A stretch of DNA of 64,000 nucleotides from a virus (lineage: Duplodnaviria; Caudoviricetes), in IMG/VR virus record IMGVR_UViG_3300001765_000027, positions 1-64,000 of that record; one strand, given 5' to 3'. The notes under the pieces are model-generated. The model did not search any database and was not told the origin of the DNA. It worked only from the letters and a program-made list of their open reading frames with translations. Position numbers and translations under genes: made by a program. This document shows positions 34,280-59,983 of this stretch, in pieces (within the stretch, counting starts at the first letter, position 1; each line of letters begins with the position of its first letter).

Positions 34280-34302
34280 TCGTTCACTAAGGCGGAAACA
34301 CC

Positions 34303-41430: not shown

Positions 41431-41469
41431 AATTCAGTCATCGCAAAACGAAACGGAAGGGGGTTCTGT

Positions 41470-41622
41470 ATGGTTCGTCGTAAGGAAAGTGAAATTGGTT
41501 CTGCTAGGGCGCATCCCGGTGCGCCGCATAACCAGAAGTTTAACGTGTCACCCAAGTATAGTAAGAAGCGTAAGACTTGGTGGAACGGTTATACTGCGAA
41601 ATCCCGCAAGGCTGACGATTGA
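41470..41622 (+). CDS. small basic protein (50 aa, not in ORF track)
   Basis: AAGGGGG RBS; MVRRKESE...KADD stop just before tRNAs. Confidence 0.4.
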   Translation: MVRRKESEIGSARAHPGAPHNQKFNVSPKYSKKRKTWWNGYTAKSRKADD

Positions 41623-41629
41623 GTAGTTA

Positions 41630-41706
41630 GCCCCTGTAGCTCAGTTGGTTAGAGCAACCGACTCATAATCGGTGGGTCACAGGTTCAAGCCCTGTCGGGG
41701 GCACCA
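41630..41706 (+). tRNA. tRNA with CAT anticodon (Ile2 or elongator Met)
   Basis: Cloverleaf; ACCGA-CTCATAA-TCGGT arm, GGTTCAAG T-loop, encoded CCA. Confidence 0.93.
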
Positions 41707-41708
41707 GT

Positions 41709-41784
41709 GCAGGTATCGTCTATCGGTTTAGGACACCATCCTTTCACGGTGGGAAGCGGGGTTCGATTCCCCGTACCTGTACCA
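41709..41784 (+). tRNA. tRNA-Glu(TTC)
   Basis: CCATC-CTTTCAC-GGTGG arm, GGTTCGATTC, encoded CCA. Confidence 0.93.
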
Positions 41785-41790
41785 AGTAAT

Positions 41791-41875
41791 GCGAGCGTGG
41801 CGAAATTGGCAGACGCAGCAGATTTAGGTTCTGCCGCCGCAAGGCGTGGAGGTTCAAGTCCTCTCGCTCGCACCA
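41791..41875 (+). tRNA. tRNA-Leu(TAG)
   Basis: GCAGA-TTTAGGT-TCTGC arm, long variable arm GCC-GCAA-GGC, encoded CCA. Confidence 0.95.
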
Positions 41876-41972
41876 TAGGCAGTATAGGGGTGTGTTGTTT
41901 CTAAAGCCTGTTTCCGTTTCCTCCTTGCTGCGGAGGGCCTAACCTGAGACAGCACACCACCTATACTGCCTA
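41876..41972 (+). ncRNA. candidate structured RNA (long closing stem)
   Basis: TAGGCAGTATAGGGGTGTGTTGTTTC pairs with GAGACAGCACACCACCTATACTGCCTA using GU pairs and one bulge. Confidence 0.55.
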
Positions 41973-42001
41973 TTGCGCCTCAGGTTCTGGGGCGGTATAT
42001 T
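41973..42001 (+). promoter_or_regulatory. early sigma70-like promoter (TTGCG-type -35)
   Basis: TTGCGC-N17-TATATT; same architecture with 17-bp spacers at 43782, 45108, 48751, 49365, 52333 and 53758. Confidence 0.7.
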
Positions 42002-42697
42002 GCAATCAGTTTCAAATTCCATAAAGGAGAAAACAGTGCAAGTTACATACACAATATATACGCAAAGGATTACCCCTGAATCTGCGGAGATGGGTGATTT
42101 CGATGGCCCTCCTGAGATTGAGGAAAGCGATACTGATACCCTGCTAGCCGTATTGCGTCGGGCGGTGAATACCTACGGTATCTGTCCGAGGACGGACGAT
42201 GATAGCCCTACATGGTTCTCTGCCGATTCACCACCAGAAGATCGTGAGTTCTTTGAGCAGGGTGTGGAGAAGATACGCACCATGAACATACACTCTCTGA
42301 CTGCGCGGCAAGGTAGGCGTGTCAATGCAATACTCAAACGGTTGTGGGGGCGGTAATGCTTACTCGTGCTATGACGCTAGACACCTACAAGGTGGATGGT
42401 GATGGCTATATCACTACTCGTGGGCGTTTCTACAAGGAGCGTATCTTCGTGCCGCACTTCTGGGACAAGACGGTAAAGGCTAAGAGAGTGATCTACGATA
42501 AGACACCAGATGGTCTTTCGTGGGCTATATGGAAGGTAGTACCGTGGGACTTAGTAGAGTATCCTGAACTGCGTAATATAGGCAGTATAGGGGTACGTGA
42601 AGAGGCGGGAAAGGTACTATCGTGGACTCGTGCTAGCTCTTACGTTGAGCCGTGCAGCGGACGTAGAATATAGGTTCATTCCAGAAAGGAGAATTGT

Positions 42698-43312
42698 ATG
42701 AAAACTGTAGAAGAACTGAAGGCCAAGCATGAGAAGGAAATGGCTTACCTGTTAGCCAACAATGCAGTGGAGGCATCGTTAGAGATACCACCAGATACTG
42801 TATCGTCAGGGGATACTAAGTGTCCTTGGATAGCTTATAAGGTAAAGACGCTGAGGGAGGCCTATGATCTAGCAGATACCTTCACTCGTGAGGAGTATGC
42901 GTATGCCAATGACGGCTGCTTCTCTTACATAAAACCCATTCCATTACTGAATGAGGATAAGGTAGATGTACTACTGCCTATAGAGGACGGTACGCCGTAT
43001 ATCGAACTGCAAAACATCGATAACCATTACCACATAGCTGAGATGATTTTCTTCATCAAGCTGTTTGATGGCCGGTACGGAAAGGTGAATATAAAGATTG
43101 AGCAAGTGCCTTGGTATATCGGGATTACCGTGGAGCATGAGGGGTATAAAGGCAGGGCTAGTGGAGTAAGAAAACTCTACCCAACCTTGTCTGAGGATAA
43201 GAGAGTGAACTGGGCTTCTGGAGGCGATAAGTCGGCTAGGGCAACCTATCACTGGTTTAGACGGGCAGAGTACGATGCGTTCATGCTGCCGTTACTCAAT
43301 CTGCAACACTAA
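42698..43312 (+). CDS. hypothetical protein
   Basis: AAGGAG RBS with leader motif. Confidence 0.65.
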   Translation: MKTVEELKAKHEKEMAYLLANNAVEASLEIPPDTVSSGDTKCPWIAYKVKTLREAYDLADTFTREEYAYANDGCFSYIKPIPLLNEDKVDVLLPIEDGTPYIELQNIDNHYHIAEMIFFIKLFDGRYGKVNIKIEQVPWYIGITVEHEGYKGRASGVRKLYPTLSEDKRVNWASGGDKSARATYHWFRRAEYDAFMLPLLNLQH

Positions 43313-44264
43313 CATGCTGAAGCAGATGGTTATTCCATACAGGAAACCTTCTCTGAGACAGGGAGGTTTCATGGCTAAATTTATTCTAGTGCTTATTGCA
43401 CTTATCGTAGTAGATGCTATGTGTTATGCTACAGGTATTGGTAGTTTTCTAAGATAGGTGATATCGTGTTTGATCGTGAAGAATGGCGCGTAGCAAAAGA
43501 CTCTGAAGCTAGAGTCTATTGCGGTGTTATAAACAATACTGTAGTAGTTAGCCCTGCACGTAAGCGGGAGTACGAGGTGTATATAAAAGCACCCTCTGAT
43601 CTATTCCCGTATTTGCAGAATGTGTGCGGTTTATCTGTGGAAGAACTACGCAGAAGCCATGTGTCGTTCTACCTAGACGAAGCAGATAGTGTATGGTACT
43701 TTGGTATGCTACTGCCTACTGATGAGCATATTGATCTATGGATATACCGTGATCTGCCGGGATGGGCATATCGCGTGTAGCTTGCGGTAGGCACCCTGTA
43801 GCCGTATCATTCAATTGTCGCATCCATTCCATAAAGGAGAAATATATGGCTCTGTTTGGTTTTGCAATCAATTTCAATTCAGGTACCACTGAGTTTGTAG
43901 TTCTATCCGCAGGCACCCTGCAACAAGCGCAGGATGAGCTTGATGGTTTCTGTGAGGGTCAGGAAGTGGAATCCACTACCGAGTATAGCGTGGAGGCTAT
44001 TGTCACGGAGCAGTACCGTGGTATGGCATTCTTGACCACTGAATATTTTTCGGGGGATGACTGACATGAAAGTAATAGTCGAAATGCGCGTACTCGTGGA
44101 AGCCGATTCACCGGATGGTTCCGTGGAGGTAGGCCCTCTGCGGGATGCTGTGAATAACGGCTTACACCTAGCCAACGCCGAGGGGTACCTGACTCCGCTG
44201 GATAACGAGGCGGTAACTATCATCGGGTGGGGCGTGTCGCACGTATCCACCAAAGGAGGCTGAC

Positions 44265-45104
44265 ATGGCAAAGATCAAGTGTCCTTACACTTTTCCGCAT
44301 AAGTCTCGCAAGGCTCGTGCAGAGTACCTAGAAGGCATTGGTGGGTACAGTCGGTATCTTGACGGCAAGTGGCCTATTGAATTTACTGTAGCCTGTTACG
44401 ATACAGACTTCAGCTTTGATAACATCTGGGACAAGTATTCTAGTGAGCATACTCCTGCGGAGTGTTTCTGCACACCAGACTTAATGGCTGCGTACTACAA
44501 TCTAGCTAAGAGACTGCACAAGTCACATGAAGAGTATATGTGGGCTTGGGGGCAGGAAGACGCTGCTAGGTCTATTTCTGATGACGATACTTTTAGGCAA
44601 TTGTGGGACGGTACGCCAGTATCTGTAGAATTGCAGCTTCGTGGTCGTAGTGGAAAGCACCTAGTCATTGCTGAGTTTGAGGGTCGCAATTTTACTGGTA
44701 TGGATGGTCGTGACCTACACGATGAAATCATGTGCCAAGTACGCCCTGATGGGTATGAGCATGTGGAGTACAATACTCTGCGTAAAGGTAATGTATGGAA
44801 TAGCTGGACAGATGCAGAGGTAGAGAAGCTGTACAAATACGTTCGTATGTGTGAGCAAGACTTCACCACTGCGAAAGCCAGCAAGGAAGTGGAGTACCAA
44901 GGGGCTTTCTGCTTTTTCGCCAATATCGTAGCCTCAGAGTGGGAAGTGGTTAAGCAGGAGATGGCTAGCCATGAAGAGGCCGTGGAGGCGGCTCAGGCAT
45001 TGTATAGCGCATTGAGCGGTGAGGACACGCAGAAGGCTGTATTCGATAGCCTATACGTCCTATGTTCTGCGGCGGGAGTATCGCAGGAAGAAGCACAAAG
45101 CTGA
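44265..45104 (+). CDS. hypothetical protein
   Basis: AGGAGG RBS, 279 aa. Confidence 0.7.
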   Translation: MAKIKCPYTFPHKSRKARAEYLEGIGGYSRYLDGKWPIEFTVACYDTDFSFDNIWDKYSSEHTPAECFCTPDLMAAYYNLAKRLHKSHEEYMWAWGQEDAARSISDDDTFRQLWDGTPVSVELQLRGRSGKHLVIAEFEGRNFTGMDGRDLHDEIMCQVRPDGYEHVEYNTLRKGNVWNSWTDAEVEKLYKYVRMCEQDFTTAKASKEVEYQGAFCFFANIVASEWEVVKQEMASHEEAVEAAQALYSALSGEDTQKAVFDSLYVLCSAAGVSQEEAQS

Positions 45105-46763
45105 TGATTGCGCAAGGTAGTCTGGTACGACATAATGGGCTTGTTCGATTCCAATCCATAAAGGAGAAACCAATGCTGCATTTTATCTACGCCTACTCTG
45201 AGCATACTCCGCGTAACGGCCACACTACCAAGTCTGTGAAAATCTACCAGATCAAGAAGAATACTCCGGTGTTTGTGGCTAGCGGCTCCGATCAGTTCGT
45301 TGGTGAGCTTCAGCTAGTGCTCCAAATTATGGAGTCAGCAAAGCTGTTGCCGCGCAAGGCCTTCGTGAAGAATGCTAATACCGGCAGTAACAATATGTGC
45401 ACTGCTTGGCAGTTACGTGAGGCAGGCATTGCGGATGTGGTTAGGATATAATTTGTAATCGATTTCAATCCATAAAGGAGAGACACATGCTGGACATACT
45501 TCGTAAGTGCGTATTCCATCCCTACACCAAAGGCCGTGAGCATCCGGTATTCTCTTTGGTACTGTATTACGTGCCGGGGCATATGAATACTGGTCAGCAG
45601 AGGCTGGGGTATCGTTTTCGTATGAATGGTAAGATGCTGTTTCAGGGCGAGGATTATGGCTGTAGCCCATGTAACGCGTGGGACAGCGACGAAGCGGTAG
45701 CTGTGTTGATGAGCTTTCTCTGCCTAAAACCGGGTGATACGGACAGGGAATACTTTGAGAAATATACTGAGGAGCAGATGGACTTCTGCACCACGCATGG
45801 CGAGGCTCTTTGGTGTTGCGTGAATGATAGGTTCGGGGAGGATGTATGCAACTGACTATATACCCTACAAAGATTGTAGTGCAGCGCGACTTGGGTGATA
45901 AAGTACGCTACAAAAACGAGAGTCATTTTCTGTATCACCTGAAGAAGGAGCTACAGAAACGTGGCAATGATTGCATTAAAAAGCTGGCGTGGAAAGACGG
46001 TAATCTAGTGGATGATTACATGCACTACATACGTGAGCGTAAAACAGGAGCATACATAGTGTATGACAGTTGGTATCAGATTAGATGTTGCGCTGAGGAA
46101 TTCAATAAGCGCGGGGAAGTGACTATGGTACTAGATGGGGGAGGACTGAAATGAGAAATGCTCTGGCTTTTGAGCATGGAGATACCACCTGTGCTAGCGA
46201 ACCGGGTGTGTTCTGCATGTTCCTATTCACCAAGCACTTTGGTACTGCGCCGGTATGCCACCTATTTGATGACCAGCCGCTGCATGAGCATACGGATGGT
46301 GAATTTCATGGTTGGCTAGCCAGATGCCCTAAGTGCGTAGAGTTATTTACTGGCGATAGAATCGTGCAAAAGAAGGATTTGCTATGAAACCTGAGGTGAG
46401 AGTATTCAGTAAGGATGCACCCTGCACCAAGGTAGAAATCTGGAATTGCTTTAGGGCGCGTTCTGGTTTCGTTTCGGTACAGGTAGTACAGGCCCACTCT
46501 GAGATTGGGCTAAACGTACCTAGAGTGATGGAGCGTAACGCTCGACTCACACGCGCTGAGCGCAAGGGTATTGAGTATTACATACTCACACCTGAAGGGG
46601 AGGAATGGCTGCTAGCCGGCATCAGAGCCTTTCTGAAGAATCATCCATTACGCGCAGATGAGGTAGCGATAGAGCCACCATCTGATAAACCTGCTAGGTT
46701 GCGTCGTACCCGCTGACGTAGTATATTTCGGTTTCGTTAATTCATTCCATAAAGGAGACACAT

Positions 46764-47237
46764 ATGGCTGCTCACATAAATAACTGGAACGATCTTCAGA
46801 AATATGGTATCAACGCCCTGACAGGGGAGGCCTGTGCCTACTCCATGAGGCTACTCTGCGATCTGAATGAGGATGGAGTAGAGCGTATCCGTGAGGCTTT
46901 TGGTATGCAGATTGTGTTGAATCCGCAGGTACAGTTTAGCGCTAACTGGAATACGCGGGTAGGCGAAAAACCTGCCGTAGCCAGCATCATGCTGTTCTAT
47001 GAAATACTGCCTGTATTGTCTAGGTTTATTCTCTTCAATGTGGAAAAATGCGAATTCGTGGTACATGCGGATGATGGTTCCTCTGTTGGTTACACCTCTG
47101 AGGACATAGACAAGTACGGTCTGACACGCAGCAAGCTAGACCAACTGTACGGCGGTCGTATCTATCGCAACCACCGCAACCCTGAGGCTTCCGTAGGTAG
47201 CCGCAACGTGCATCAAGCAACCGGACGATCTGAGTAA
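46764..47237 (+). CDS. hypothetical protein
   Basis: AAGGAG RBS; LTGEAC..S.RLLCDL motif. Confidence 0.65.
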   Translation: MAAHINNWNDLQKYGINALTGEACAYSMRLLCDLNEDGVERIREAFGMQIVLNPQVQFSANWNTRVGEKPAVASIMLFYEILPVLSRFILFNVEKCEFVVHADDGSSVGYTSEDIDKYGLTRSKLDQLYGGRIYRNHRNPEASVGSRNVHQATGRSE

Positions 47238-48882
47238 AGGATACATATGACCCATAAACTAGGAACTGAACATGAACACTTGAGCGGCCTGCGAGTTAAT
47301 GACCTTGTAGCTAAGGTGGCGCGAGTAACCATGAAGGATACTACTCGTGTGATGAAGTCTATGCTGCTAGTCTGCATGTACTTGGATATTGATATGTATG
47401 AGTTGCTGGAGGAAGAAGAGTTTTCTGTAGAGCGACCAAGTGCAGATGAGGCTACTAAGTGCAATGAGGCGTTTAACGAACTACAGGAAGCTTTACGTGT
47501 ATGGGATGCGCAAGCTGACATAGACGATATTCGTGCGCTAGATTGATCCATTTCATAAAGGAGGATGCTGATGATCTACGAAATTTACTATGAACCACGA
47601 GGCGGTGTATGGCGTATCAGAGTTACTGTTATCTACTTCCTATTCTTCTCGTGGTCTAGGGTAGCTTGTGATGGTAGTCTAAGCCCTCTGGACTTTACTT
47701 CCTACAAGGTAGCTGAGGAATACGCAGAGACTACTGGCTTATCTAAAGCGTACCAGAAACGTACTCGCGGTGCGGGGTATGTCTCTTGGCTGCATGGAGA
47801 AGGATGCCATGCGTAGAGTGCGGAGGGTGCAGGTAGTAGAAGCTGAGCCTACTAGGGTAAGGCGACCACCTAGGACACTGCTACCGGACGGTAAAGTAGC
47901 AGTAACTCTGGTTGTATCGGCAGAGATTGTGCGAGGTTCGGTATCGGAGAAAGACTTTGCTGCTTGGGTAAGCGAAGCTGTACATTCGTACCATCGCTGG
48001 CGTAACGGTTGGGTGGGTATTGGGGCTACTGGCGGTATAGATGTTCCGCAGGTAATAGTAGCTGATGATGGATAGTATGGTAGATAGACGAAAGCTAGTG
48101 GAGCCGTTAGGCAGTCGTGGTTCCCGCAAGGTTAGGACAGAAGACGGTGGGGTACGGGTAGTACGCCCCACTGTCGATAGCCTAGTCAGGATGCGGGTGT
48201 CTAAACAGAAAAAGAAAGTAGTGATTAGATTCAATAGAGGCACGATGTAGGTGGTGCCACGACTCTCACAATACTGTAGCTCTCTGTAGCTGGATACCGC
48301 TGTATGCTACTGGCCGCTACACCCTGAGTAGGGTAGTTGTGGGTATTGCGGGATGGGCGCTGTAGCAGTAAAGTTTGACTTCCTTATTTCATATAGACAG
48401 GAGGTAGTGATGGGCGCTAGACCAAATGCTGTATTTTCTGTTAGCCCTATCGCAGGGTGCCGATTAGTGCAACGTAATGGATGTGATTTTATTTCCCAGC
48501 GTGAGCGAGCATTTACCGGTACGTGCAGGGTTGTTAGTTCTGGCGATGACTTCTTCGGCTCTGGGGAGCCTTACGTTGGTGCGGTACTTACTAACCCTAC
48601 GTGGGCTAGGCTATTGACGGAAGCTGGCAAGATGATCGAAGCTACTGGGGATCGCCACCATATATACCTTGAACAGTTTTATGTGCCTAAGTCTCAGCCT
48701 GAGGAAGGTATTACACAGATTGAACTGATTATGGGTAGTTAATGTGGGGCTTGCGCCCCGGTCTCTGGGGCGCTAAAGTTCAACCATCGATTGATTCCAT
48801 ACAGGAGGGGCGAACATGAAGTGAGGCAAGTAAGGTAAGTGGATTTGCAATCAATTACAAACTAAAAGAAAGGCGGTGCAAT

Positions 48883-49110
48883 ATGGCTACAAAACGTACA
48901 TTCAAGGATGCTGAAGGTAAGATCGGTCGTAACGCTTCTTACGTGATCGACAGCAAAGGTATTATGACCATCAAGGTGGATTTGAATCTTGATCTGGGGC
49001 CGTCCAAATCCGGCAAGAGCAACATCGTGGCTTCATCCGATGGCAATACCCCGATTGATGGTGGGCAGGGGGCAGTTATCGGCCTGAACATCTACCGTAA
49101 AGCTGATTAA
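48883..49110 (+). CDS. conserved small phage protein
   Basis: TIKVDL...GPSKSGK..IVAS..GN...GLNIY; biased codons. Confidence 0.65.
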   Translation: MATKRTFKDAEGKIGRNASYVIDSKGIMTIKVDLNLDLGPSKSGKSNIVASSDGNTPIDGGQGAVIGLNIYRKAD

Positions 49111-49116
49111 CGATTA

Positions 49117-49358
49117 GGGGCGTGTGAGATTGGCTGTGATGCCAGCGAAATGACAGATAACGTGCGCAATGTAGGGCCACGCACCCTGTCCGCCCACCCT
49201 CAACTGCGGTTCGTTGGCCGCGAACTGCGGGAGGTAATTGAAAGGAGACTGAGTATGCTTCGCCATTGAATCGTGGTAGCCCTGACGACCACGCCAACAA
49301 CAGGGTCTCGGTGCGGACGCGCATTAGAGGATAAGGGATCGAGTGAGACACTCACTCG
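49117..49358 (+). ncRNA. candidate multi-stem RNA with pseudoknot
   Basis: Nested helices and an H-type pseudoknot in an ORF-free interval (see findings). Confidence 0.5.
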
Positions 49359-50091
49359 TGAGTATTGCAGGGAGGCCTCTGCTTCCCTAGAATACTTACT
49401 CGTTCATTCCATACAGGAGGTTACACCGTGATTACTAAAGAGATTGCACTGACGCTGAAGCATGGTCAGATTCTGCATAGCAAGACCACCAAGAACGCTG
49501 ACAAGACACCCATGCGGGTTCGTGTTAATGGCAAGTGCCAGACATGGGCGCGTCGGCCTCTCGACTTCAAGCTGCCGGTAAAGTATGGGCTGAAGACCTG
49601 TGGCTATATCGACAATTTTGATTTGGGTAACTTCCACGACTGGGAGGTAGCATGAGCCAACGACTGACATACGAGGTAGCCCAGACGCTGAAGAAGGGCG
49701 ACATTCTGTACAACAACGTGCTTGAATTCACCGATGCGGATGGTGATAGGTCACCGGCTACTGCGGTAGTTATGGGTAAGCCTAAGAAGCATCCTGTAGA
49801 AGAGTTCCTACTACCTATCAAGAGGCAGTATGGTGATGGCGGCATGGGTAACGTATCGAAGTTTGGTAGTGATCTATGGCGCACCACACCTGAGAAGGTA
49901 GTCGCAAAACATATCGTGCGTACGCGTCCTGCACCCGTAGAGGAAGAGGAGGTAGTGACACCTACTCATGTGCGTAGGACGAGGCGTTAAGTGGCTATAT
50001 CGCACGGTTACCTGATAGGGTAAAGTTCATACATGGCAAGTTTATATAGCCTACATTGTTTTTCTGTTCATCTCATAAGGAGGTACTGCAA

Positions 50092-50604
50092 ATGACCCAG
50101 ACCACGACCACTGTTGCAAAGAAAATTTCCCCACGCAAACCCGCTGCCAAGGTTGAGGCGAAGCCTGCCCGTAAGGCAGTATCGCTGAAGGCAGAGGCGA
50201 AGCCCTCGCTGATGAAGGAGGTTGCTGTTGCAGCAACTAAGTTTTTCGTGTTTATCGAAGGCGCACGACCTGTATCAGGCATTCGGCTTTCTGCACATAC
50301 CGATGCCGCTCTGCGGTTCCTTGGTTTGGCAGAGCAAAAGTCGGTGCGCAAGGGCGCAGCTATCGCTGTCATGGGTAACCGTGCTATCAAGTACCACATT
50401 GAGCGTGGAAACATGGAGGAGAAGGGTGGTAACGTCGCTCTGACTACTCAAGGGTACGGAGTATTCAAGGGGCGCGTGGAGGGCGGCAAGGTTGATGGTA
50501 AGCTGTCAGCCGCGTATCTGGCCGCTATCTCCAAAGGCAAGACCAACGTCGAGTGCGGTATCAAGGATAATCACCTGATCCCCGTAGGTATGCAGCTTCG
50601 CTGA
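50092..50604 (+). CDS. Lys/Ala-tailed putative DNA-binding protein (distant paralogue of 57164 and 59012)
   Basis: AIKYH..RGN......ALT.QG motif shared with those ORFs. Confidence 0.65.
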   Translation: MTQTTTTVAKKISPRKPAAKVEAKPARKAVSLKAEAKPSLMKEVAVAATKFFVFIEGARPVSGIRLSAHTDAALRFLGLAEQKSVRKGAAIAVMGNRAIKYHIERGNMEEKGGNVALTTQGYGVFKGRVEGGKVDGKLSAAYLAAISKGKTNVECGIKDNHLIPVGMQLR

Positions 50605-50632
50605 TCCCTCCTCTGGCGCATAGCGCCAGTTT

Positions 50633-50662
50633 ATCAGGGTGGAATCTCACCCTGATTTTTTT
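50633..50662 (+). terminator. intrinsic terminator
   Basis: ATCAGGGTG...CACCCTGAT stem plus T-run. Confidence 0.8.
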
Positions 50663-51494
50663 CGCCCGTAGTACGGTGCTGCCATGCGGCAGTATCTACT
50701 ATAGGTGCTGTACTACAGTACAGAGTGCTGCTGGGTGTTGCTGATTGCAATCGATTGCAAACTGGGCCTTTCGCGGGAGGCCCTGAGGTAGTACCATTCA
50801 TCTATTGATTCATTCCATAGAGGAGAATACCGTGAAAAGTAGAGCAGATGCTGTATTGAAGGGCGTAGAGGCGCTGCGCAAGCTTCGGCCTAACATGAGA
50901 GTAGAGATTCACCCTGCGAGTGATCGTCCATTGATCGTAACGCTGGATGGTTGGGTATCTATTTCTGAGGCAGAGATTGAGGTTGTGCGGTCTAGTATCT
51001 TGGGCGATGAAGTGGTCAAGGTACAGGGCTTTCTGCTTGAGAAAGCGGTTATGTCCTATGGCGCGTATTCTGAGCCGGACGATGTTGATATTGTAGCCGT
51101 GGGGGAGTACGAGAACGTGCTACCGGTAGTACGGGATGCCTACATGGAGATAGTGGAGAATGAACTGTCTCAATGCTTGGAGTATGTGTGGTACGAAGAG
51201 TCTTTCGTGGATGTATCGGAAGAGTAGCTGTAGGAGTACCATTCGTTTCGTAGGCTAATTCAATCCATACAGGAGAACTGAAATGAAACTGATCTATACG
51301 GAGAGTGGCGCAGCAGTACAGAAGGGTGACAAGGTTACTAGCTTTCGTGGTACCGAGGCCACAGTAACTGGCTGGGATGAGCCGCGCCACGCTGGTTCTA
51401 CCGGACGGGTATATGTGCGCGAAGTAGAGTTGGCTACCTGCGACTGCTCTTACTTTCCCGGTGTCTTTAAGCTCAAATTCGTGGAGGATTAATC

Positions 51495-52094
51495 ATGGAT
51501 CGCACTGTTGCTCTGGATGCACTCAAGGTTGGTCTGGAGTCCGGTACTGTGTCGGACAAGGATCGCGGTTTCGTGGAATCGCTGGTAGCCCAGAGCGCTA
51601 CTCGTGGCTTGTCGGACAAGCAGTGGTATTGGGTAGCCAAACTGGCTAGTAAGTTGGTTGGTGATCCGCAACCCGCTACTGTGGCTAACTTCGAGCGCGT
51701 GTATGTGATGTTTCAGAAAGCGAAGGAACACCTGAAATACCCGAAGTTCAATCTGGCTACTCCTTCAGGTCGTGGGGTGAAGTTGTACCTTTCTGGAGAG
51801 CGTAGCAGGGTTCCTGATACCGTCAATGTAGTTGATACCTGCAACGACGGCTGGTACGGTAGAGTCTATCAGGATGGTAAGTGGGAGCAGGGTACCGCAT
51901 CGTCTGGAATGGACGAGGTAGAGGCGCTGCTTAACAGGTTGGCTAGCGACCCAGAGGGGGTAGCTGCGGAGCATGGGAAGCTCACAGGTAACTGTTGTTT
52001 CTGTAGTAGGGGGCTATCGGATGAGCGCAGTACAGAAGTGGGGTATGGCCCAGTATGTGCCTCACGCTACGGCCTTACGTGGGGCAAGAAGTAA
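51495..52094 (+). CDS. DUF6011-like zinc-finger protein
   Basis: C-terminal G.CCFC.R.L.DERS...GYGPVCA. Confidence 0.75.
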   Translation: MDRTVALDALKVGLESGTVSDKDRGFVESLVAQSATRGLSDKQWYWVAKLASKLVGDPQPATVANFERVYVMFQKAKEHLKYPKFNLATPSGRGVKLYLSGERSRVPDTVNVVDTCNDGWYGRVYQDGKWEQGTASSGMDEVEALLNRLASDPEGVAAEHGKLTGNCCFCSRGLSDERSTEVGYGPVCASRYGLTWGKK

Positions 52095-54943
52095 GCCCCT
52101 GTAGGGGTATAGTTCGGATTCCATCAATCCATACCGGAGAATGAAAATGAAACCTGTACCTACGATGTTCTACGTTGTGTCTCATGTCATGGCTCGTGCT
52201 ATCAAGGAAGGGCGCGACTGCAAACGCGGCACGATGTACGGCGTGTTCGCTACGGCAGCTAGCGCTGCGGCCTATGTCACGAACAACAAACTGGGGCTTT
52301 GCTCTACCGTAGTAGAAAAGTAGTAGTGAGGATTGCGCCCTCGTAACTGGGGGCGTAAGATTCTCCCATGTTCATTCCATAAAGGAGATAGATGTGACTG
52401 CTAAAAAACGCATGCCGATAGAGTTTTCCCCGCACCTGATCGACGCGGTGCATACCGTAGTGAGTGCGATATACTGCGATGCCGCAGAGTTCTGCGAGGA
52501 TAACGAAGAACTGATTGAGTTAGTGCTAGACGCAGACCGGCTCCTGACGTTTGCCGATCCGCAAGCTGAAGAAGAGGCATCCAGACTGATTGACTTGTAT
52601 GGATTTGACAAAGTGCGCAAGCAGTTGTCTGCCAAGTGTAATTACATCTAACCAAGGAGTACGTGATGGACGTAGTGTATAACGAGGCCTTCGGGCAACT
52701 GGAGATTAGCGGAGATTCTGCTAGTACGCTATTCGCTGCAACTGCGAAGATGAATGGGTCGGATGTGTATGAGTTTGAGGACGAGGCTGGAAAAGGATAT
52801 GCCTTCGTGGCCGGAAAGCTCACATACCTGTTTCAGAAGGTTGCGGGTGTGCAGCGTTTGACTATCATGGGAGGCTAATCGTGAGACTATACAAGGATAC
52901 TGATGGTATCAAGTCTTATGCCACTGAGGCTAATGCGGAGAAAGCTGCCGATAAGCTAGTAGATCAAGTTACTGAGGCTAGGTTACGTTATGTGCTAATG
53001 CCGGCCCAAGGTGGTAGGTACGCAGTGTGCTTTATCCTATCGCAGCAGCAGATGTGGATGGCTGGCGGTATCGCACATCTCGGTTTTTGTGTGACGGGGT
53101 AAGCCATGACACTGAAAATCAAACCTGCTCATATAGACAGACTTCGTGAGGTAATGGACGTATTTCTGAATGAGGATACTGAGCAGCTATACAAAGACGC
53201 TGGGATGACTACGCGTAGGTATCTATGGGATGCGTTCTGGTCGGCATGTAAATGTGATCCGCACTTGAACGATGTTGTGCGAGAGATATACACCTACGCC
53301 GACGATACTCACCTGTATTCCGTATTCAAGATGTTGTGGAAGGAGAAGCAAAATGGAACGATCTGACTTGATAGAGCCGATCTACAGTGGTGACGAATTC
53401 CATAGCGAATTACTATCGCTGAATGCGAAGTACGGGCGCGGTGATCCAATCAGTATTACATGGGATGCCGGCACCGACTGGTCGCTTGCTACGGGTGTTA
53501 TTCGTCGTGCTATCGTAGTTTGCCAACTGCAATACGGGCAGGCAGCGTACCTGATGACGGTTCATTGTTGGGATACGCAGTACATACTGAAGTTTAGACG
53601 GCACACGGTAACAGTGCAATCAGACTACTTTGCGTCCTGATAAGAAATCCCTATTAAACTGTGAAAGTCGATAGTTTCGTGCTATTGCGGGAATTTACGA
53701 GAATTTCTCGTGGTTTTCGCATAGCGTGGGAATTTGTAATCGATTGCAAACTGAGGCTTGCGGAAGGTTTAGTGGGGCGGTAAAGTAGCACCATGTTCAA
53801 TCCATAGAGGAGAAGATGATGCGTGAAGTGAATCAGTACCAGACAGCCGACCTGTACCGCGAGGCATTCAAGCAAGTGTGCGAAGAGGATGACTGGAAGA
53901 AGCCAATTGACTGCATGGTTCCCTACCATCTGGCTAACCTGTACATGCAGGCTATTGAATTCGTAACTGGGGTTCCGGCACAAGGTACTGCGGCAGGTTG
54001 CGTGCCGGGAATGTATCGGCTTACCTGTATCGGCTACCGCGCAGGGCCGTGTAACTAACATGGACTACCACTGGAAGAATCTGGAAACGGGAGGCTCTGG
54101 AGTCTCCCAGTTCAAGCCAGTGCAGCACTCCATATTCGGTGAGGAAGGCTATGTAGCGCAACGCTCACTGGATAAAGCTGCCGATGACTTGATAAACAAG
54201 TGGAATGCTCAACAACCTAAAACGTGGAAATACTGGAGGGATCATGCGAATGCCTGAGGCAATAGTAGTGGTAAAGGATGCGGATTGGTGGGTAGGACGT
54301 ACTCTACTGTGGCTATTTGCCATCCGTGGGTTTCTCGACACAGTTACGTCACTGGGGGTGTGAAATGAGAGTTAGTGCAAAGCATGGATTGAACCCGTCG
54401 CTGGTAACTTGTTTTTGGTGCGGGGAGGGTACAGGAGAGATAGTGATGTTTGGTGCATCCTACCCAAAGGGCGCTGAGGCACCAATGCACTCAGTAATGA
54501 ACTATGAGCCGTGCGCAGACTGTAGGGATAAGTTCTCGTTAGGGATAGTCCTGATGGAGGCCCAGACTCGACCTATTAAGGATCGCCCTGAGATTCAGGA
54601 AGGCGTGTGGCCTACGGGAGCGCATGTCGTGATAACGGAGAATGATCTTCGTAGGGCATTCGATCCTGCGACGGCAGACAGCGTGATAAAAGCGGGGAAG
54701 GCATTTATCGACACTGCTACCTTTACTCAACTATTCCGTGGGAGTCAATGCGATGGTTAGTGTAGTCATGGAGGAAGGCTCTGATCGATTGGAGCTAGAA
54801 GTGCGCGGGGCGGTACTACACCTAAACAGTGTAGAGGCTAAGAGAGTGGTCATGTTCCTAGCACACGCCCTGAGCAAGATGCCGGAAGCGCCTGTACAGC
54901 AAATGCGGGAGCGGCTGGAGAATACGTATCTGGGGAGAATGGC

Positions 54944-55375
54944 ATGAGACAAGAGGTGGCTATACGCTCTGCCTTCAAGATTGCGGAAAGGTTAGCTGCA
55001 TGTGATGGGGTAGTAGATACGCCGGACTGTGCATGGAGTCAATTCAGGTTTAACGTGGTATGGTTATTCGGCTCTACTGCGCAAGGTAAAAAAGAACCCG
55101 GTGATATAGACATCATGTACGATGCTGCGTCGGGCGGGGTGTGGCAACCAGATAATCTATTTACTGGTAAGAGCCACAAAGGCCACGCTGACTACGTTGC
55201 GTTAGTGTGGCTTAGGAGAGGACTGAAGCTAGTCAGGTATCACGACTACTACTGTGATAACTTTGCACTGGATCATGGCGCAATACAGCTATGGCCTGTT
55301 AATGAATTAGTGGTAGCCGCTGATGCCTTGGTTACTAAACGGTATCGTCCTGTTAAGCGTGAGGATTTTGAGTGA
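54944..55375 (+). CDS. minimal nucleotidyltransferase-fold protein
   Basis: VWLFGS..G.....DIDI Pol-beta superfamily motif. Confidence 0.7.
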   Translation: MRQEVAIRSAFKIAERLAACDGVVDTPDCAWSQFRFNVVWLFGSTAQGKKEPGDIDIMYDAASGGVWQPDNLFTGKSHKGHADYVALVWLRRGLKLVRYHDYYCDNFALDHGAIQLWPVNELVVAADALVTKRYRPVKREDFE

Positions 55376-55684
55376 GGGAGGCTATGGTGAGTAAAGGAAT
55401 GACAGCTACTGAGAAATACCACTATGAGGAATACACTAGACTGCGGGAACAGGCCCTGCTCATCTATAAGGTATGGGATAACAAACCAGTACCTGACAAG
55501 GTTAAAGCGCCACACTACAAAACAGCAGACCTGTTAATGCGACAAGCAGACCACCATAAGCAACTGTGGATCAACGCTGCAAGTACCTAATTTGTGGGCG
55601 GGGAGGTAAATAGATAGTGAATACACCATATAAGACATATAGGACTGCATATAGACATAGAGTGCATCCTATTACTGATTTACT

Positions 55685-55730
55685 TTGTGTTATATTTTTT
55701 CCCGATCTACTTGTGTTATATTTTTTCCCG
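55685..55730. repeat. 20-bp direct repeat in AT-rich noncoding tract
   Basis: TTGTGTTATATTTTTTCCCG at 55685 and 55711. Confidence 0.8.
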
Positions 55731-56045
55731 TCTTACTGCGTGTTTCCCATCTGAACAAAATTTTCAAATCGTGCCCTATATGATTCGTGGTATGGTGTTA
55801 TTGTGTCATGCTGTCATGTGCTGCCACGGCAGCCTTATAACTATGGGTGCTGCCACGGGGTACTGATACTAACTACGTGCTGCCACCTATTACTGATACT
55901 ACTGTATAGTGGTGGTGAGTGGTGGGTGCTGCTGAGTGGTGTAGTGGTGAGCGCCCCGCATGTGGGTACGTGGTGACCTACCCGCGATTCGTGGGACAGG
56001 GCATAATTCGTTCTCCATTAGTTCATTCCACATAGGAGTTCTGAA

Positions 56046-56357
56046 ATGTTCCACAATCAAGTACAGACGCCCTCCCCTGAGTTCCTTGCGTATTGCGATG
56101 CTATTCGCCCCGCACCTGTTGTTACTGCGTACCGCGCAGGATACTTGGCAGGCGAGGTCGCTCGTGAGACGGGAGCCGGTTTGCCTGACGCATTGCCGGA
56201 AGTCATTGAGTACCTGTACAACAATACTGGCAATGAGCACTACATTGATCTAGTCGAGTCCGCCCTGATCGAGTCAGCGTTTCTGGATGGGGCGGCAACG
56301 GCGTACTGCGATCAAGAGCCTTTGACCGACAATCAGATCGTTGTGGCCTACGACTGA
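56046..56357 (+). CDS. hypothetical acidic protein
   Basis: AGGAG RBS with leader motif. Confidence 0.6.
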   Translation: MFHNQVQTPSPEFLAYCDAIRPAPVVTAYRAGYLAGEVARETGAGLPDALPEVIEYLYNNTGNEHYIDLVESALIESAFLDGAATAYCDQEPLTDNQIVVAYD

Positions 56358-56431
56358 GTATTGACGATGGCCCTGTGTTGCTTCAACATGGGGTCTCGTT
56401 TTGAAATCAATTACAAAAAGGAGTAACTGAA

Positions 56432-56596
56432 ATGTCCAAGAGTCGCCGTCGTGAGAATAACGAATCAGTGATGAGTAAAGTGGCAACGGGTAGCAAGCGT
56501 GTTGTGTTGAGTATCGAGAACCGCCGTGCGCGGAAGGCAAAGGCAGCAACGTGGAAGCGTCAGTGGAACGAAGAACTCCTCTCTGACGTAGTATAG
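56432..56596 (+). CDS. small Arg-rich protein (54 aa, not in ORF track)
   Basis: AAGGAG RBS; MSKSRRRENN...ENRRARKAK. Confidence 0.55.
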   Translation: MSKSRRRENNESVMSKVATGSKRVVLSIENRRARKAKAATWKRQWNEELLSDVV

Positions 56597-56641
56597 TTCG
56601 TTTCGTAGTACATCCCATTCATTCCATATCTGGAGAATATC

Positions 56642-56881
56642 ATGGCAGTGTTCAAAATCCTCGGTACCATTGTGAAAATCCTCGAAGGCGGTGAAGAGAA
56701 GCGCGTGCTTACTAAGACCTACGTCCGTGCCCCTAACGCCGACTACGCTGAGGTCATGGGTATCAATCTGGGCTTCATCGAATCGGAAGTGTCGTACTTC
56801 GGGCAGGATCACTCTACTGATCTGGGTAACAATACCCACTACGCTGCGGACAACGGGCTAGGAGTACTGCCCGGAATGTGA
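56642..56881 (+). CDS. hypothetical protein
   Basis: GGAG RBS; terminator at 56898-56929. Confidence 0.6.
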   Translation: MAVFKILGTIVKILEGGEEKRVLTKTYVRAPNADYAEVMGINLGFIESEVSYFGQDHSTDLGNNTHYAADNGLGVLPGM

Positions 56882-57163
56882 GAATAGGGCCTAATCTGGG
56901 GTAGGGCTATGCCTTACCCCTGTTCTTTTAACGCAACCTAGTGCTGTTAAGTGCCCTTAATTATCACGTTTCTGGTGGTGCCATGCGGCTTCTATTACTA
57001 GTATGGTGCTGTCTGGCGTTTAGTGCTGCTGTCTGCTGCTGAATATGCCTCTGGTGTTTGAAATCGATTTCAAAAATATTTTGTGCGTGATGCACACAAG
57101 CGCCACTGTTTCGATATAATAGGTACTCCATCAACGTAGTACATTCCATATAGGAGTTCTGAG

Positions 57164-57625
57164 ATGACAAACGCCACCCTGAAAACGAAGTCCGTGAAAA
57201 CCGTCAAGGCCGCTGCACCTAAGGCCGTGAAGAACACTCCCGTCAAGAAGACTGCCGTCAAGGCTGAAGTCAAGCCGACAGTGTTTGCTCTGGTAGCCGG
57301 CCTCGCCGTGAAGGTCGAACACAAGGCCCTGAAGCAGGCCGTCAAGTACCACGTATCGAAAGGCTCCCTGAAGCTCACCACGGCGGGTGTAGAGCTTACG
57401 GCGCAGGGTAAGACCTTGTGGGACGCTGAGCGGGTAGCAAAAGACCCTGCCAAGTTCCAAGAGATAGCTGCTTTCGTGAAGGGTACGGGAGAGTGCCCGA
57501 AGGAGTGGAAGGGCCAGCCGACTACCACTGTGGCCGATGGCGTGAAGTTCCCGAACATGCTCTACTGGGGTAGCTTCACCACTGGGATTATGCGTCAAGC
57601 GTTCTCTGCGCTCTGGGCCAAGTAA
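57164..57625 (+). CDS. Lys/Ala/Thr-tailed putative DNA-binding protein, copy A
   Basis: Close paralogue of 59012..59473 (DPAKFQEIA, GECPKEW.GQP, FPNMLYWGSF); own -10 TATAAT and terminator 57641-57670. Confidence 0.8.
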   Translation: MTNATLKTKSVKTVKAAAPKAVKNTPVKKTAVKAEVKPTVFALVAGLAVKVEHKALKQAVKYHVSKGSLKLTTAGVELTAQGKTLWDAERVAKDPAKFQEIAAFVKGTGECPKEWKGQPTTTVADGVKFPNMLYWGSFTTGIMRQAFSALWAK

Positions 57626-57978
57626 TAGAGTGAGACTATCGGGGAGGGTGACACCTCCCTGATTTTTTATTGGCACACTTCCTGCTGAGCAAGTGCCATG
57701 CCAGTACTGATAAGTGGCTGCTGCCACGCCATAAAATTTACTTTTTATTCTGGTGTCGTGGGTGGTGCCTGCTGTCATATCCTGCTGTACTATGCTGCTG
57801 TCGAATAAGTCCGGTGGTGCCACGCATATGTTGTATTTATGGCGGTGGTGTCTGGGTGGTGGTGTCTGGTGGTGAAGTGTCATTTCTGAAATCGATTGCA
57901 AATGTGGCATTTCTGAGCGATTTGTGGGGGAGGTACAATGGGTCTCTTCCAACCACACCACGAGGAAAGGCAACAACC

Positions 57979-58161
57979 ATGCAAATCAAATCTAACACCT
58001 CAGATATCGTCGTTTCGTTCCGCGATATTGACGACAACATGATTGAGGGCCGTATATACGCCGAAGCGGGAGAATTTTATTGGTCAATCGAAGCAGTAAT
58101 GGGGCCATTCAATTCCGAGCAGGAAGCATTTGTCGATATGCTTGCATACTTCAGAGGGTAA
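57979..58161 (+). CDS. small acidic early protein
   Basis: TACAAT at 57934, GAGG RBS, terminator 58167-58190. Confidence 0.65.
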   Translation: MQIKSNTSDIVVSFRDIDDNMIEGRIYAEAGEFYWSIEAVMGPFNSEQEAFVDMLAYFRG

Positions 58162-58303
58162 GGATAAGAGGCTTCGGCCTCTTTTCTTTTACCCTCTACA
58201 TAGTGGTGCTACTGTCTACTGGTGAGGGGTAGGCCCCTGAGGCACACGCGATTTCTGGGGCGGGGTACAATGGGTTTCCTCAATTCCATATAGGACAAAC
58301 GAA

Positions 58304-58537
58304 ATGCCTAACATCAAAATCCATAGCGTTGTTACCCTCCAGAATTCCTTGGGTCGTATCCTCATTGTTGAATACCCAGAGGGTTGTTTCGGTACCGACG
58401 ATTCTATAGGTTTCCTTTGGTTTGACGAATCCGATTTATCGCAGGAAGAGAATGCTATTCAGTATCCCGGCGATAGGGTATTCCTACCTACTCCAGAGGA
58501 AACCATAAACAACGCGTTTCTACATTTGAGCGTTTAA
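58304..58537 (+). CDS. small acidic early protein
   Basis: TACAAT at 58266, leader motif, terminator 58544-58570. Confidence 0.65.
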   Translation: MPNIKIHSVVTLQNSLGRILIVEYPEGCFGTDDSIGFLWFDESDLSQEENAIQYPGDRVFLPTPEETINNAFLHLSV

Positions 58538-59011
58538 TAAATCGGGAGGTAAAACCTCCCTTTTTATTTATCTACTATTCAGGTGCTGCCATCCAGTAGT
58601 TGATACCCCTGCATGTGCTGCCACGCTATCGGTTATACCCTGACGCCTGCTGACTGTAGGGTACTGGTAGCGCTGTTCCTACTGAGTGCTGCTGAGGGTC
58701 TGGTGCCACTGTCCCTACAATACTGGGCCTAGTGCTGTCGGATACATGGTCTGGGTATGTGGGTGGTCTGGGGCTATCGCCGGGGGCTGATCGATAGGCA
58801 ACCCCTATCGGGTATTTCCGACGCGTCTGGTATGGTATGACTTTTGACAATGCAAGGGGCATGCCCGAAAGCGAAAAACGAAAGAAATTTATTTTTGCAA
58901 TTGATTACAAAAAAGGCTTGCAATGCAGAAACGCGCCCCTATAATTCTAATCAGCAACACGGCAACACGGTAACGCGACCGATTCGCGGCAACCCATACA
59001 GGGGCGTCAAA

Positions 59012-59473
59012 ATGGCAACCACCAAAGCAACCACCAAAGCAACCACCAAAGCAACCAAAGCAACCACCAAAGCGGCAGGCAACACACCAGTAAAGGCAAC
59101 CACCAAAGCGGCAGAAAAGAAAGCTCACGTTTTTGCATTGGTTGCCGGTATGGTTCGTAAAATCGACCACAAAGGCATGAAACAAGCGGTTGCTTATCAT
59201 GTATCAAAAGGCAACCTAAACCGCACGGAAAGCGGTTTAGCGCTCACCGAGCAGGGCGCTATGCTTTGGGCAAAAGATAGGGTTAATAATGATCCGGCAA
59301 AGTTTCAAGAAATCGCAAGCTTTATAAACGGCAAAGGAGAATGCCCGAAAGAATGGAATGGGCAACCTATAACGCAAGCATGCGATGGAGCGCAATTCCC
59401 TAATATGCTTTATTGGGGAAGTTTCGCAAGCGGTATCATGCGGCAGGCATTTGCCGGTCTTTGGGCAAAGTAA
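59012..59473 (+). CDS. Lys/Ala/Thr-tailed putative DNA-binding protein, copy B
   Basis: Paralogue of 57164..57625; ATTK repeats; promoter TTGCAA-N16-TATAAT at 58918-58945. Confidence 0.8.
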   Translation: MATTKATTKATTKATKATTKAAGNTPVKATTKAAEKKAHVFALVAGMVRKIDHKGMKQAVAYHVSKGNLNRTESGLALTEQGAMLWAKDRVNNDPAKFQEIASFINGKGECPKEWNGQPITQACDGAQFPNMLYWGSFASGIMRQAFAGLWAK

Positions 59474-59535
59474 GATAAGCAAAAGGGGCGCTAACATAAG
59501 CGCCCCTATCTAATCCTATATAAGGTAGATCAATA

Positions 59536-59646
59536 ATGAAAAACATTTCTATTTATGCGGTTATTGGGTATATCGCTTATCATATCTATACATTAGTTTC
59601 ACTTATCCCCACGATCATAACGCTAGCAAATCGCATGCCACATTAA
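59536..59646 (+). CDS. 36-aa hydrophobic peptide
   Basis: TAAGG RBS; MKNISIYAVIGYIAYHIYTLVSLIPTIITLANRMPH; followed by GACCG/CGGTC hairpin and T-run. Confidence 0.45.
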   Translation: MKNISIYAVIGYIAYHIYTLVSLIPTIITLANRMPH

Positions 59647-59983
59647 CCTATTTCATTATAAAAAAATCGACCGTGTAATATCGGTCTTTTTTATATCCTC
59701 TGGTGCTGTAAGGAAATGATGGATACCGATTTTTTATTTCAGCCATATAGAATTCTTTTTAGTCCACCTAGAGTCCGCACAATTCCAGACATATAGAATT
59801 TTTGGGCAATCTAGGCATGCGGGAGGACTAAAACAATATGCTTTTCCTACTAGTATTTGTGGCTATTGCAGATACATTCAATTCTTTGTATAATCTCGAT
59901 TAGTTTATGGTTACTTTAATTGCATCAGAGATGCACATTTACTGCCCCGGAGAATTTGTAATTGATTACAAAAAGGAGAGAAG

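Follow-up and report, generated by a model that had tools for sequence, protein, structure and literature searches.

CTG and GTG are absent from the sense strand of three small transcription cassettes in an uncultured tailed phage

Results

Organization of the cassette locus

The window analyzed here is the first 64,000 nucleotides (nt) of IMG/VR virus record IMGVR_UViG_3300001765_000027 (Duplodnaviria; Caudoviricetes), a single contig of 102,004 nt that is called the genome below. The whole gene set lies on the + strand. Between 57927 and 59672 the window contains three units from which the trinucleotides CTG and GTG, together written STG, are absent on the + strand; the complement of STG, CAC or CAG, is written CAS. 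STG was counted on the + strand of both the window and the genome. In a search of sequencing runs, this genome was found in one DNA run, a microbial-mat metagenome stored as contigs that may be the source sample, and the listing gave no RNA run. Judged from their sequence, each of the three units is a cassette complete in itself, with a predicted promoter, one or more small genes and a predicted terminator, and the units are probably read by host RNA polymerase. All promoters and terminators named in this text are predictions based on consensus matches. The locus is made up as follows.

57626..57926, + strand: STG-saturated spacer 5' of unit 1 that includes, among other runs, GTGGTGGTG and CTGGTGGTG, and has a palindrome variant near 57888
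57927..58202, + strand: unit 1, STG-free cassette (0 STG in 276 nt)
57934-57939, + strand: TACAAT of the unit 1 promoter-like box GGTACAATGGG (consensus match)
57979-58161, + strand: unit 1 open reading frame (ORF), a 60-amino-acid (aa) orphan with no Pfam or PHROG match
58166-58183, + strand: predicted unit 1 terminator hairpin, then a T-run
58203..58257, + strand: spacer 1 (7 STG in 55 nt), with GTGGTG at its start, 20 nt past the unit 1 terminator stem
58258..58582, + strand: unit 2, STG-free cassette (0 STG in 325 nt)
58266-58271, + strand: TACAAT of the unit 2 promoter-like box GGTACAATGGG (consensus match)
58304-58537, + strand: unit 2 ORF, a 77-aa orphan with no Pfam or PHROG match
58544-58560, + strand: predicted unit 2 terminator hairpin, then a T-run
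58583..58829, + strand: spacer 2, an STG array (27 STG in 247 nt), with STGSTGCCA(Y) at 58583, 58615 and 58700
58830..59672, + strand: unit 3, conserved STG-free cassette (0 STG in 843 nt)
58918-58945, + strand: unit 3 sigma-70-like promoter TTGCAA-16-TATAAT (consensus match)
59012-59473, + strand: unit 3 gene for a 153-aa protein with a Lys/Thr/Ala-rich tail and a small globular domain
59484-59507, + strand: unit 3 hairpin between the 153-aa gene and the peptide gene
59536-59646, + strand: unit 3 ORF for a 36-aa hydrophobic peptide
59669-59686, + strand: predicted unit 3 terminator
59700..59708, + strand: CTGGTGCTG run directly past the unit 3 terminator

The window has two copies of the box GGTACAATGGG and no more, one in unit 1 and the other in unit 2. 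The unit 2 protein matched only itself in a database search, and its scores in a protein atlas search (0.82) were at chance level.

Absence of CTG and GTG from the sense strand

A recount agreed with an earlier note on this DNA, made from its letters, that no CTG or GTG occurs on the + strand in 57927-58202, 58258-58582 or 58830-59672 (1444 nt pooled), and it gave the spacer counts claimed there, 7 in 58203-58257 and 27 in 58583-58829. The corresponding gaps between successive STG, 58827-59673 (846 nt), 58255-58583 (328 nt) and 57924-58203 (279 nt), were the three longest on the + strand of the whole genome, and the fourth-longest was only 184 nt. The number of STG expected in the pooled 1444 nt was 46 from the genome frequency and 16.5 from a first-order Markov model, and the number observed was 0. 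CTG and GTG were the sole trinucleotides with a zero count in these 1444 nt, where ATG (29) and TTG (26) were normal. The complements CAG (18) and CAC (20) were also present in normal amounts (38 in 1444 nt), as the earlier note had claimed; therefore, only the strand being read is cleared, and the template strand of the cassettes is kept without 5'-CA(C/G)-3'.

An unbiased scan of 352 patterns, consisting of the 64 trinucleotides and 288 patterns degenerate at one position, ranked STG first, with a longest gap of 27.2 times the mean gap, while the runner-up pattern reached 18.3 times. Separately, GAG and TAG (together KAG) were also absent for 443 nt at 58795-59238, inside unit 3, which at 18.3 times the mean was the second most extreme gap in the genome.

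These word counts bear on the proposal that the cassettes avoid pause sites of RNA polymerase so as to be transcribed as fast as possible. The elemental pause consensus is G-10 Y-1 G+1, and it has a pyrimidine-G step, as does STG. However, other words with this step were kept in the units (CCG 15, GCG 25 and TCG 18, beside the normal TTG and ATG counts), a kinetic preference would lead to a bias and not to a total absence that is kept across relatives, and the STG arrays would be left unexplained. We regard pause avoidance as very improbable.

Base composition, codon choice and a paralogue rich in STG

Local base composition had been named in the earlier note as something that might explain the depletion. 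It was rejected for unit 3, while units 1 and 2 were not extreme as single gaps. Each unit was given 5000 dinucleotide-preserving shuffles, a conservative null in that the exclusion itself already lowers the CT, GT and TG counts; 68 shuffles of unit 1 and 45 of unit 2 contained zero STG, whereas none of unit 3 did, the minimum there being 2. The longest gap in each of 60 third-order Markov genomes was 260 nt on average and 370 nt at most, so that the 279- and 328-nt gaps fall within this range; the units are also A-rich and G-poor. Because of the shuffles and the Markov genomes, units 1 and 2 are taken as unremarkable when considered as isolated gaps and unit 3 as far outside the null.

Synonymous-codon resampling gave z = -4.9 for ORF 58844-59473, which is the version of the ORF caller and encloses the 59012-59473 gene, and z = -2.8 for 58304-58537. 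The view that codon bias is not the cause was borne out, since all frames and the untranslated regions (UTRs) were affected and a paralogue of the unit 3 protein, here called paralogue A, serves as an internal control.

57091-57120, + strand: sigma-70-like promoter of paralogue A (consensus match)
57164..57625, + strand: paralogue A of the unit 3 protein, STG-rich, 153 aa
57638-57663, + strand: predicted terminator of paralogue A

Paralogue A and the unit 3 protein were identical at 92 of 154 aligned positions (60%). The gene of paralogue A contained 26 STG (11, 10 and 5 by frame; z = +2.3 against synonymous resampling), while the unit 3 gene contained 0. Therefore, amino-acid composition cannot explain the exclusion.

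The unit 3 protein had 42 database homologues, none with a Pfam family, and had itself no match in Pfam, PHROGs or NCBIfam. Neither megablast with the region nor tblastn with the unit 3 protein gave a match in a phage collection, which perhaps did not include the closest records. The predicted fold, with a predicted local distance difference test score (pLDDT) of 72.6, consisted of a disordered basic tail (residues 1-35) and a domain of about 115 aa, and its resemblance to winged-helix-like structures was weak (Foldseek E 0.5 or worse; VIA-align Z up to 4.0). A DNA-binding role for the unit 3 family is a lead suggested by this model.

A leader, TTCCA(C/T)ATAGGA, was conserved 5' of start codons in the window (56020-56046, 57140-57164 and 58280-58304) and in the related contigs L001, L002 and L003. 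The STG-rich versions ended in ...GGAGTTCTGA(A/G)ATG and the version of unit 2 in ...GGACAAACGAAATG, from which the CTG of the ribosome-site spacer is gone.

Conservation in related phages

Relatives were collected by alignment-based scans of viral contigs, which gave L001-L003 where a scan with a single protein had given no relative. Twelve distinct related contigs were obtained. Six of them reach the syntenic place and are informative; L009, L010, L011, L012, L014 and L015 stop short of it and are outside the conservation count. The earlier note had pointed to related phages as a check, and the exclusion was found again there: five of the six informative contigs held an STG-free island of at least 505 nt in the syntenic place (the sixth, L001, is taken up in the Discussion). 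The STG gap was 747 nt across the orthologue in L002 (next in the locus, 149 nt), 654 and 311 nt in L003 (a contig of 1150 nt), 755 nt in L006, which also has a second small cassette with one CTG, 1292 nt in L008 and at least 505 nt in L013, where it lies at the edge of the locus. The orthologous unit 3 cassettes of L002, L003, L006 and L008 were STG-free, and the STG that leaked into cassettes of relatives was mostly CTG. At the contig end of L003 (1-60), 5' of the cassette, there are alternating CA/CG repeats (cacacacgcacacgcacgc...).

L008 is part of a complete record of 99,461 nt, G001. The 1292-nt gap of G001 was 46.8 times as long as the mean gap and exceeded the next-longest (164 nt) eightfold, and STG again ranked first of the 352 patterns. 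The first protein of this island gave BLASTP E 0.36 and an hhalign probability of 27.7% (E 6.4e-4) against the unit 3 protein, and it is at best a remote homologue. G001 has a second island (L021) at about 49630-50800, with a word set other than STG: TAR, GTW, YAC and STA were absent for 560-1170 nt, and this island holds the longest CAS gap of that genome (464 nt).

The relatives had a recurrent layout. An STG array comes first, then an operator-like palindrome and a promoter; next is the gene for a protein whose tail is rich in Lys, Ala and Thr, in some cases accompanied by an extra gene; the gene for a small hydrophobic peptide, a terminator and an STG run complete it. In unit 3 and its orthologues the STG-free zone reached 90 to about 280 nt 5' of the predicted promoter. 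A run of (STG)2-3 stood 3' of every cassette terminator inspected by eye (window, L002, L006 and L008). A cultured relative, Pseudomonas phage SM1, whose DNA polymerase is 49% identical, has a relaxed layout in L025 23040-23985 (record 73040-73985), with an STG array, a TTGACC-17-TATTAT promoter and gp093, which has a Lys/Ala/Pro-rich tail and contains 7 CTG and 0 GTG. The SM1 genome was without an extreme gap, the longest STG gap being 302 nt.

A variant of the palindrome lies in unit 3, 5' of the promoter, and variants also precede the STG-free cassettes of the relatives. Its 16-bp form, TTG(C/A)AAT(C/T)(G/A)(A/G)TT(G/T)CAA, had 25 strict matches (3764-63720 in the window, up to 100937 in the genome), often about 30 nt 5' of start codons or beside sigma-70-like promoters and sometimes intragenic; it was also present in L001, L002, L003, L006 and L008. 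Its possible roles include those of an operator, a parS-like site and an RNA hairpin.

Together with the 0 of 5000 shuffles for unit 3, the two words missing from the pooled units and the 26 versus 0 STG of the paralogues, the first rank of STG in two genomes and its retained exclusion in five of the six informative contigs argue against local base composition, codon bias or chance, which we consider refuted for unit 3 and can virtually dismiss overall.

Boundaries of the exclusion and the STG arrays

The claim that the exclusion follows promoter-terminator units was upheld, with boundaries lying at predicted promoters and terminators. The timing of the units, early according to the earlier note, is putative and is based on sigma-70-like consensus matches. 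The last STG before the TACAAT hexamer was 10-11 nt upstream in units 1 and 2, and STG returned 20 nt (unit 1) and 23 nt (unit 2) past the terminator stem as the tandem runs GTGGTG and GTGCTG. The last STG before unit 3 was 91 nt upstream of the -35 hexamer, and STG returned within the terminator stem. Across 57626-57978 there were 37 STG. Further upstream lies a larger array.

55591..56045, + strand: large noncoding STG array (41 STG in 455 nt)

The spacers were more than merely G+T-rich and held an oriented motif. STGSTGCCA(Y) had 14 copies on the + strand, all within 38.7-58.7 kb and 12 of them intergenic, and 3 on the - strand; 35 of the 85 (STG)n runs on the + strand of the genome were within 55-60 kb. 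In the array at 55591-56045, GTGCTGCCAC was present three times, at 55818, 55847 and 55877, with a spacing of 29-30 nt. A search of Rfam gave a single sub-threshold chance match. The three copies of GTGCTGCCAC come after two AT-rich direct repeats, GTGTTATATTTTTTCCCG, at 55685-55900 of the window, in a layout like that of an origin of replication or another protein-binding array.

An agent of the host or the phage that acts on RNA would fit these boundaries equally as well as the DNA mark that is taken up in the Discussion. It could be a (C/G)UG-specific endoribonuclease, or an RNA-binding or RNA-modifying factor, that acts on single-stranded RNA; the cassettes would then be immune mRNAs, STG-rich genes would be marked for rapid decay, and the arrays past the terminators would trim read-through RNA. 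Whole transcripts were cleared in all frames and UTRs, from about 10 nt of the -10 hexamer (units 1 and 2) to the terminators, while CAS on the sense strand was untouched. The lone STG within the unit 3 RNA was confined to the terminator stem, and the same was seen in L002 and L003. The orphan genes of units 1 and 2 conform as well, which would be in keeping with anti-defence genes whose products are needed first, and toxins with 3-nt specificity and engineered ACA-less messages provide a precedent (PMC5408214, in the part available). However, that part of PMC5408214 gave no toxin of CUG or, more widely, (C/G)UG specificity (its text has 'CUG' nowhere and 'GUG' in one place). A nuclease with 3-nt specificity would, moreover, degrade the remaining mRNAs of the phage, whose replication and structural genes carry about 27 STG per kb, and spacers that are apparently untranscribed and hold an oriented 10-nt DNA motif with 29-34 nt spacing are poorly explained by it. 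Pfam scans of 61 + 64 proteins in bulk and of about 30 more singly found no RNase-like family, which weighs little since most small ORFs are without any family. Overall, an RNA-level agent is a possible but rather unlikely cause of the exclusion.

STG usage by gene class

The genes upstream of the cassettes were enriched in the words that the cassettes lack.

41000..57926, + strand: small-gene region in which STG is specifically enriched ('class E', by trinucleotide rates)

In comparison with the structural region, the small-gene region had 23.8 versus 11.8 GTG and 26.9 versus 16.7 CTG per kb, and these were the two most enriched of the 64 trinucleotides. GTG made up 0.36 of the GTN codons at 41-57.9 kb (n=400), 0.18 in the rest (n=2168) and 0 in the units (n=18); CTG made up 0.49 (n=255), 0.19 (n=1487) and 0 (n=13) of the CTN codons, respectively. 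In the six other fourfold families the share of G-ending codons shifted by 0.07 or less between 41-57.9 kb and the rest. The STG content is therefore set apart from general codon usage.

Some further features of word usage were seen. The commonest Val and Leu codons were GTA and CTA (0.52 and 0.47 of their families), while the remaining fourfold families favoured T, in this genome, G001 and SM1. The TA dinucleotide was at 1.27 times expectation, words containing TA were over-represented (GTA/TAC 1.62 times in this genome and 1.55 times in G001), and CTAC was the most over-represented 4-mer in this genome, G001 and SM1 (2.61, 2.04 and 1.65 times, respectively). This genome also favoured NNT|AS over NNC|AS. 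A genome-wide signature of CAS decay to TAS was considered and rejected: TAT/TAA also exceeded CAT/CAA, the preference for GTA is clade-wide and includes SM1, and the NNT|AS context effect was not reproduced in G001 or SM1.

Candidate DNA-modification module and gene content

The phage carries a plausible short-motif DNA-modification module, as far as its encoded protein families indicate.

32053..35046, + strand: candidate DNA-modification module upstream of the terminase, whose link to the exclusion we infer
32053-32766, + strand: ParB_N protein (PF02195 match)
32789-34279, + strand: 496-aa protein with two ParB_N domains (PF02195) and a C-terminal class-I methyltransferase motif, LLDFGAG, read in the translation
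34303-35046, + strand: CmoA-like enzyme (TIGR00740)

In Pfam the CmoA-like enzyme matched only generic methyltransferase domains. G001 has a CmoA-like gene that is 56% identical, and SM1 has the same three-gene order. The phage also encodes a replication and recombination set (DNA polymerase, DnaB-like helicase, DnaG-like Toprim primase, UvsX-like recombinase, RuvC and a ligase-like protein) and a nucleotide-metabolism set (ThyX, a dCTP deaminase-like protein, dUTPase and dNMP kinase). The proteins scanned gave no match to a toxin, nickase or Mom-like family, and many of the ORFs matched no family of any kind. One protein, encoded in the genome outside 41-64 kb, has a Tad2-like anti-Thoeris domain (PF11195, E 2.4e-25).

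This gene content is relevant to a further group of explanations, in which another strand-specific transaction meets the + strand as single-stranded DNA (ssDNA), either as the lagging-strand template of rightward forks or as the strand displaced in transcription bubbles. A phage primase could start at 5'-STG-3', (STG)n could be recognized by a recombinase or in a RecBCD-Chi-like manner, the template strand could be nicked at specific sites, or a host toxin could modify ssDNA; the cassettes would dodge the primers, nicks or lesions, and the arrays would be hot spots of loading or priming. The primase, helicase, recombinase and ligase-like protein listed above would fit, as does the confinement of the arrays to one strand. 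The Chi site of E. coli is G-CTG-GTG-G, and the exact octamer was present in the arrays of L008 (twice) and L006 (once). However, the exact Chi GCTGGTGG was absent from the spacers of the window and had a single copy on the + strand of the genome, at 85964; this octamer is that of E. coli and may not be that of the host. No family of nickases was among the proteins scanned, and a primer site in an 846-nt gene would have no obvious cost that demands total exclusion. Proteobacterial DnaG primes on CTG and CTA according to the available part of PMC2978363, yet CTA was kept in the units (24) and GTG is not a DnaG site. We therefore judge a transaction on ssDNA to be improbable.

Discussion

The pattern described here is real, strand-specific and conserved, and it is statistically overwhelming for unit 3 and its orthologues. 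The exclusion itself, its strand, its boundaries, its conservation, the tuning of STG codons by gene class and the presence of the module are all observed. Avoidance of short words is already known for restriction sites and for toxin-resistant messages. In the present phage, one strand of single transcription units is cleared of a 3-nt word that is packed into the DNA between these units and whose use varies with gene class; the literature on trinucleotide avoidance, resistant transcripts, phage DNA modification and primase sites gave no account of phage cassettes free of STG (supplementary files lay outside this search). The clearing, the concentration and the gene-class tuning together point to a reader with trinucleotide resolution that acts on transcription, RNA or single-stranded DNA.

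The explanation that we tentatively place first, as possible rather than probable, is, in line with the earlier note, a DNA modification at a short motif, which would impede RNA polymerase wherever it lies on the template strand. We infer the existence of this mark, its CAS motif, the hindrance of the polymerase and all of the timing. The DNA of the phage would carry a mark of the phage's own making, placed at a short motif of which CAS is part. The ParB-fused methyltransferase-like protein is the candidate writer, for which the CmoA-like carboxy-S-adenosylmethionine (carboxy-SAM) synthase would supply the cofactor. RNA polymerase would be slowed or halted by a mark on the strand that it reads, and the density of STG on the sense strand would act as a dial in cis. 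With zero STG, a gene would be fully expressed from marked DNA, that is, from the incoming genome and from late DNA. An ordinary STG density would lower expression. Where STG is enriched, as in the genes of 41-58 kb, paralogue A and the arrays between the cassettes, the DNA would be silenced or insulated while it is marked and open when it is new and unmarked.

A DNA mark and an RNA-level agent both predict an exclusion that covers whole transcripts and the sense strand only. The DNA mark is ranked above the RNA-level agent because the spacers between terminators and promoters hold an oriented, regularly spaced word. The spacers between the cassettes are probably untranscribed, and arrays of STG within them therefore point to a DNA-level element. 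The DNA mark is also placed first because a plausible short-motif writer is present and because the STG-rich and STG-free copies of one protein suggest two template states.

Several results weigh against a template-strand mark. With about 27 STG per kb in the replication and structural genes, a strict block would prevent infection, and the effect must therefore be graded. The contrast in STG codons between gene classes was weak in G001. The CmoA-like enzyme matched TIGR00740 with E 2.7e-30 and 105.8 bits, which is below the curated cut-off of 193.3, and the 496-aa protein showed only ParB_N in sequence searches of Pfam, NCBIfam and PDB, with no DNA methyltransferase family. SM1 carries the module yet has only a relaxed cassette. 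L001 is also relaxed, with 5 STG in the coding sequence, while the three longest gaps of its locus still surround the gene. The STG-free zone upstream of the predicted promoter in unit 3 and its orthologues is explained neither by a mark on the DNA nor by an RNA-level agent unless there is a start further upstream.

A more specific form of the DNA mark, which we consider doubtful at present, is that a built-in epigenetic timer is set by how densely a single 3-nt word is distributed along the transcribed strand; a new ParB-fused, carboxy-SAM-dependent transferase would write a hypermodification and CAS on the template would brake host RNA polymerase. Cassettes without CAS would be expressed from the incoming genome in its marked state. 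Genes and arrays rich in CAS would stay silent or insulating for as long as replication has not diluted the mark, and one protein would be encoded twice, with one copy for each template state.

If the reader is indeed a DNA mark of the phage itself, this would be the first phage hypermodification that acts as a strand-specific transcriptional switch, and the modification motif of an uncharacterized ParB-fused transferase would have been obtained straight from sequence. An RNase as the reader would mean that the pattern reveals a new specificity and identifies a group of first-strike genes. Either way, motif-free islands could be used widely, with sequence as the only input, to detect cryptic sequence-specific agents in uncultured phages. 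SM1 is a possible laboratory model and offers an experimental handle.

Comparison with known systems

In phage T7, all EcoP15I CAGCAG sites are reported to be in one orientation. As in the present phage, a CAG/CTG word is strand-biased in a phage whose genes are all on one strand; however, the site in T7 is 6 nt long and the bias is genome-wide, whereas here individual cassettes lack a 3-nt word that is crowded into the DNA between them.

The Mom protein of phage Mu makes a bulky methylcarbamoyl-adenine in the context S-A-S-N-Y, and to our knowledge Mu does not keep transcription units free of its modification. This context of a bulky adenine modification overlaps CAS, and the earlier note had drawn the comparison for that reason. 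It did not hold: CTC (11) and GTC (7), the complements of GAG and GAC, were kept in the 1444 nt, and no protein scanned matched a Mom-like family.

T4 RegB acts on GGAG in early mRNAs, and the mqsR message is poor in GCU. The ACA-less mRNAs described for MazF in the available part of PMC5408214 resemble the cassettes in that a short word is wholly missing from a message in every frame, and the other messages of the present phage are word-rich and would presumably be destined for decay. They differ in that no such nuclease was found among the phage proteins scanned and in that the word is packed here into apparently untranscribed spacers as an oriented motif.

The nearest comparison for the candidate module is the CmoA-CmoX(-CmoY) system of Synechococcus phage S-B43. 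In the part of PMC12783734 available, phage CmoA supplies carboxy-SAM to CmoX, a C5-methyltransferase homologue, and the product is 5-carboxymethylcytosine at GC sites, a 2-nt motif; the same source cites major-groove modifications that alter bacterial transcription and poses an effect on RNA polymerase as a question. The published motif is GC and not CAS, motif-free cassettes are not described in that part, and the partner here is a protein with two ParB_N domains fused to a class-I methyltransferase-like domain, without a match to the CmoX (C5-methyltransferase) family. However, the systems are alike in having a CmoA-like gene next to ParB-domain genes and near terminase genes. ParBc neighbours are frequent in phage CmoA systems (PMC12783734), and this feature is present here as PF02195 in both 32053-32766 and 32789-34279. 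A very short modification motif is plausible in the present phage as well.

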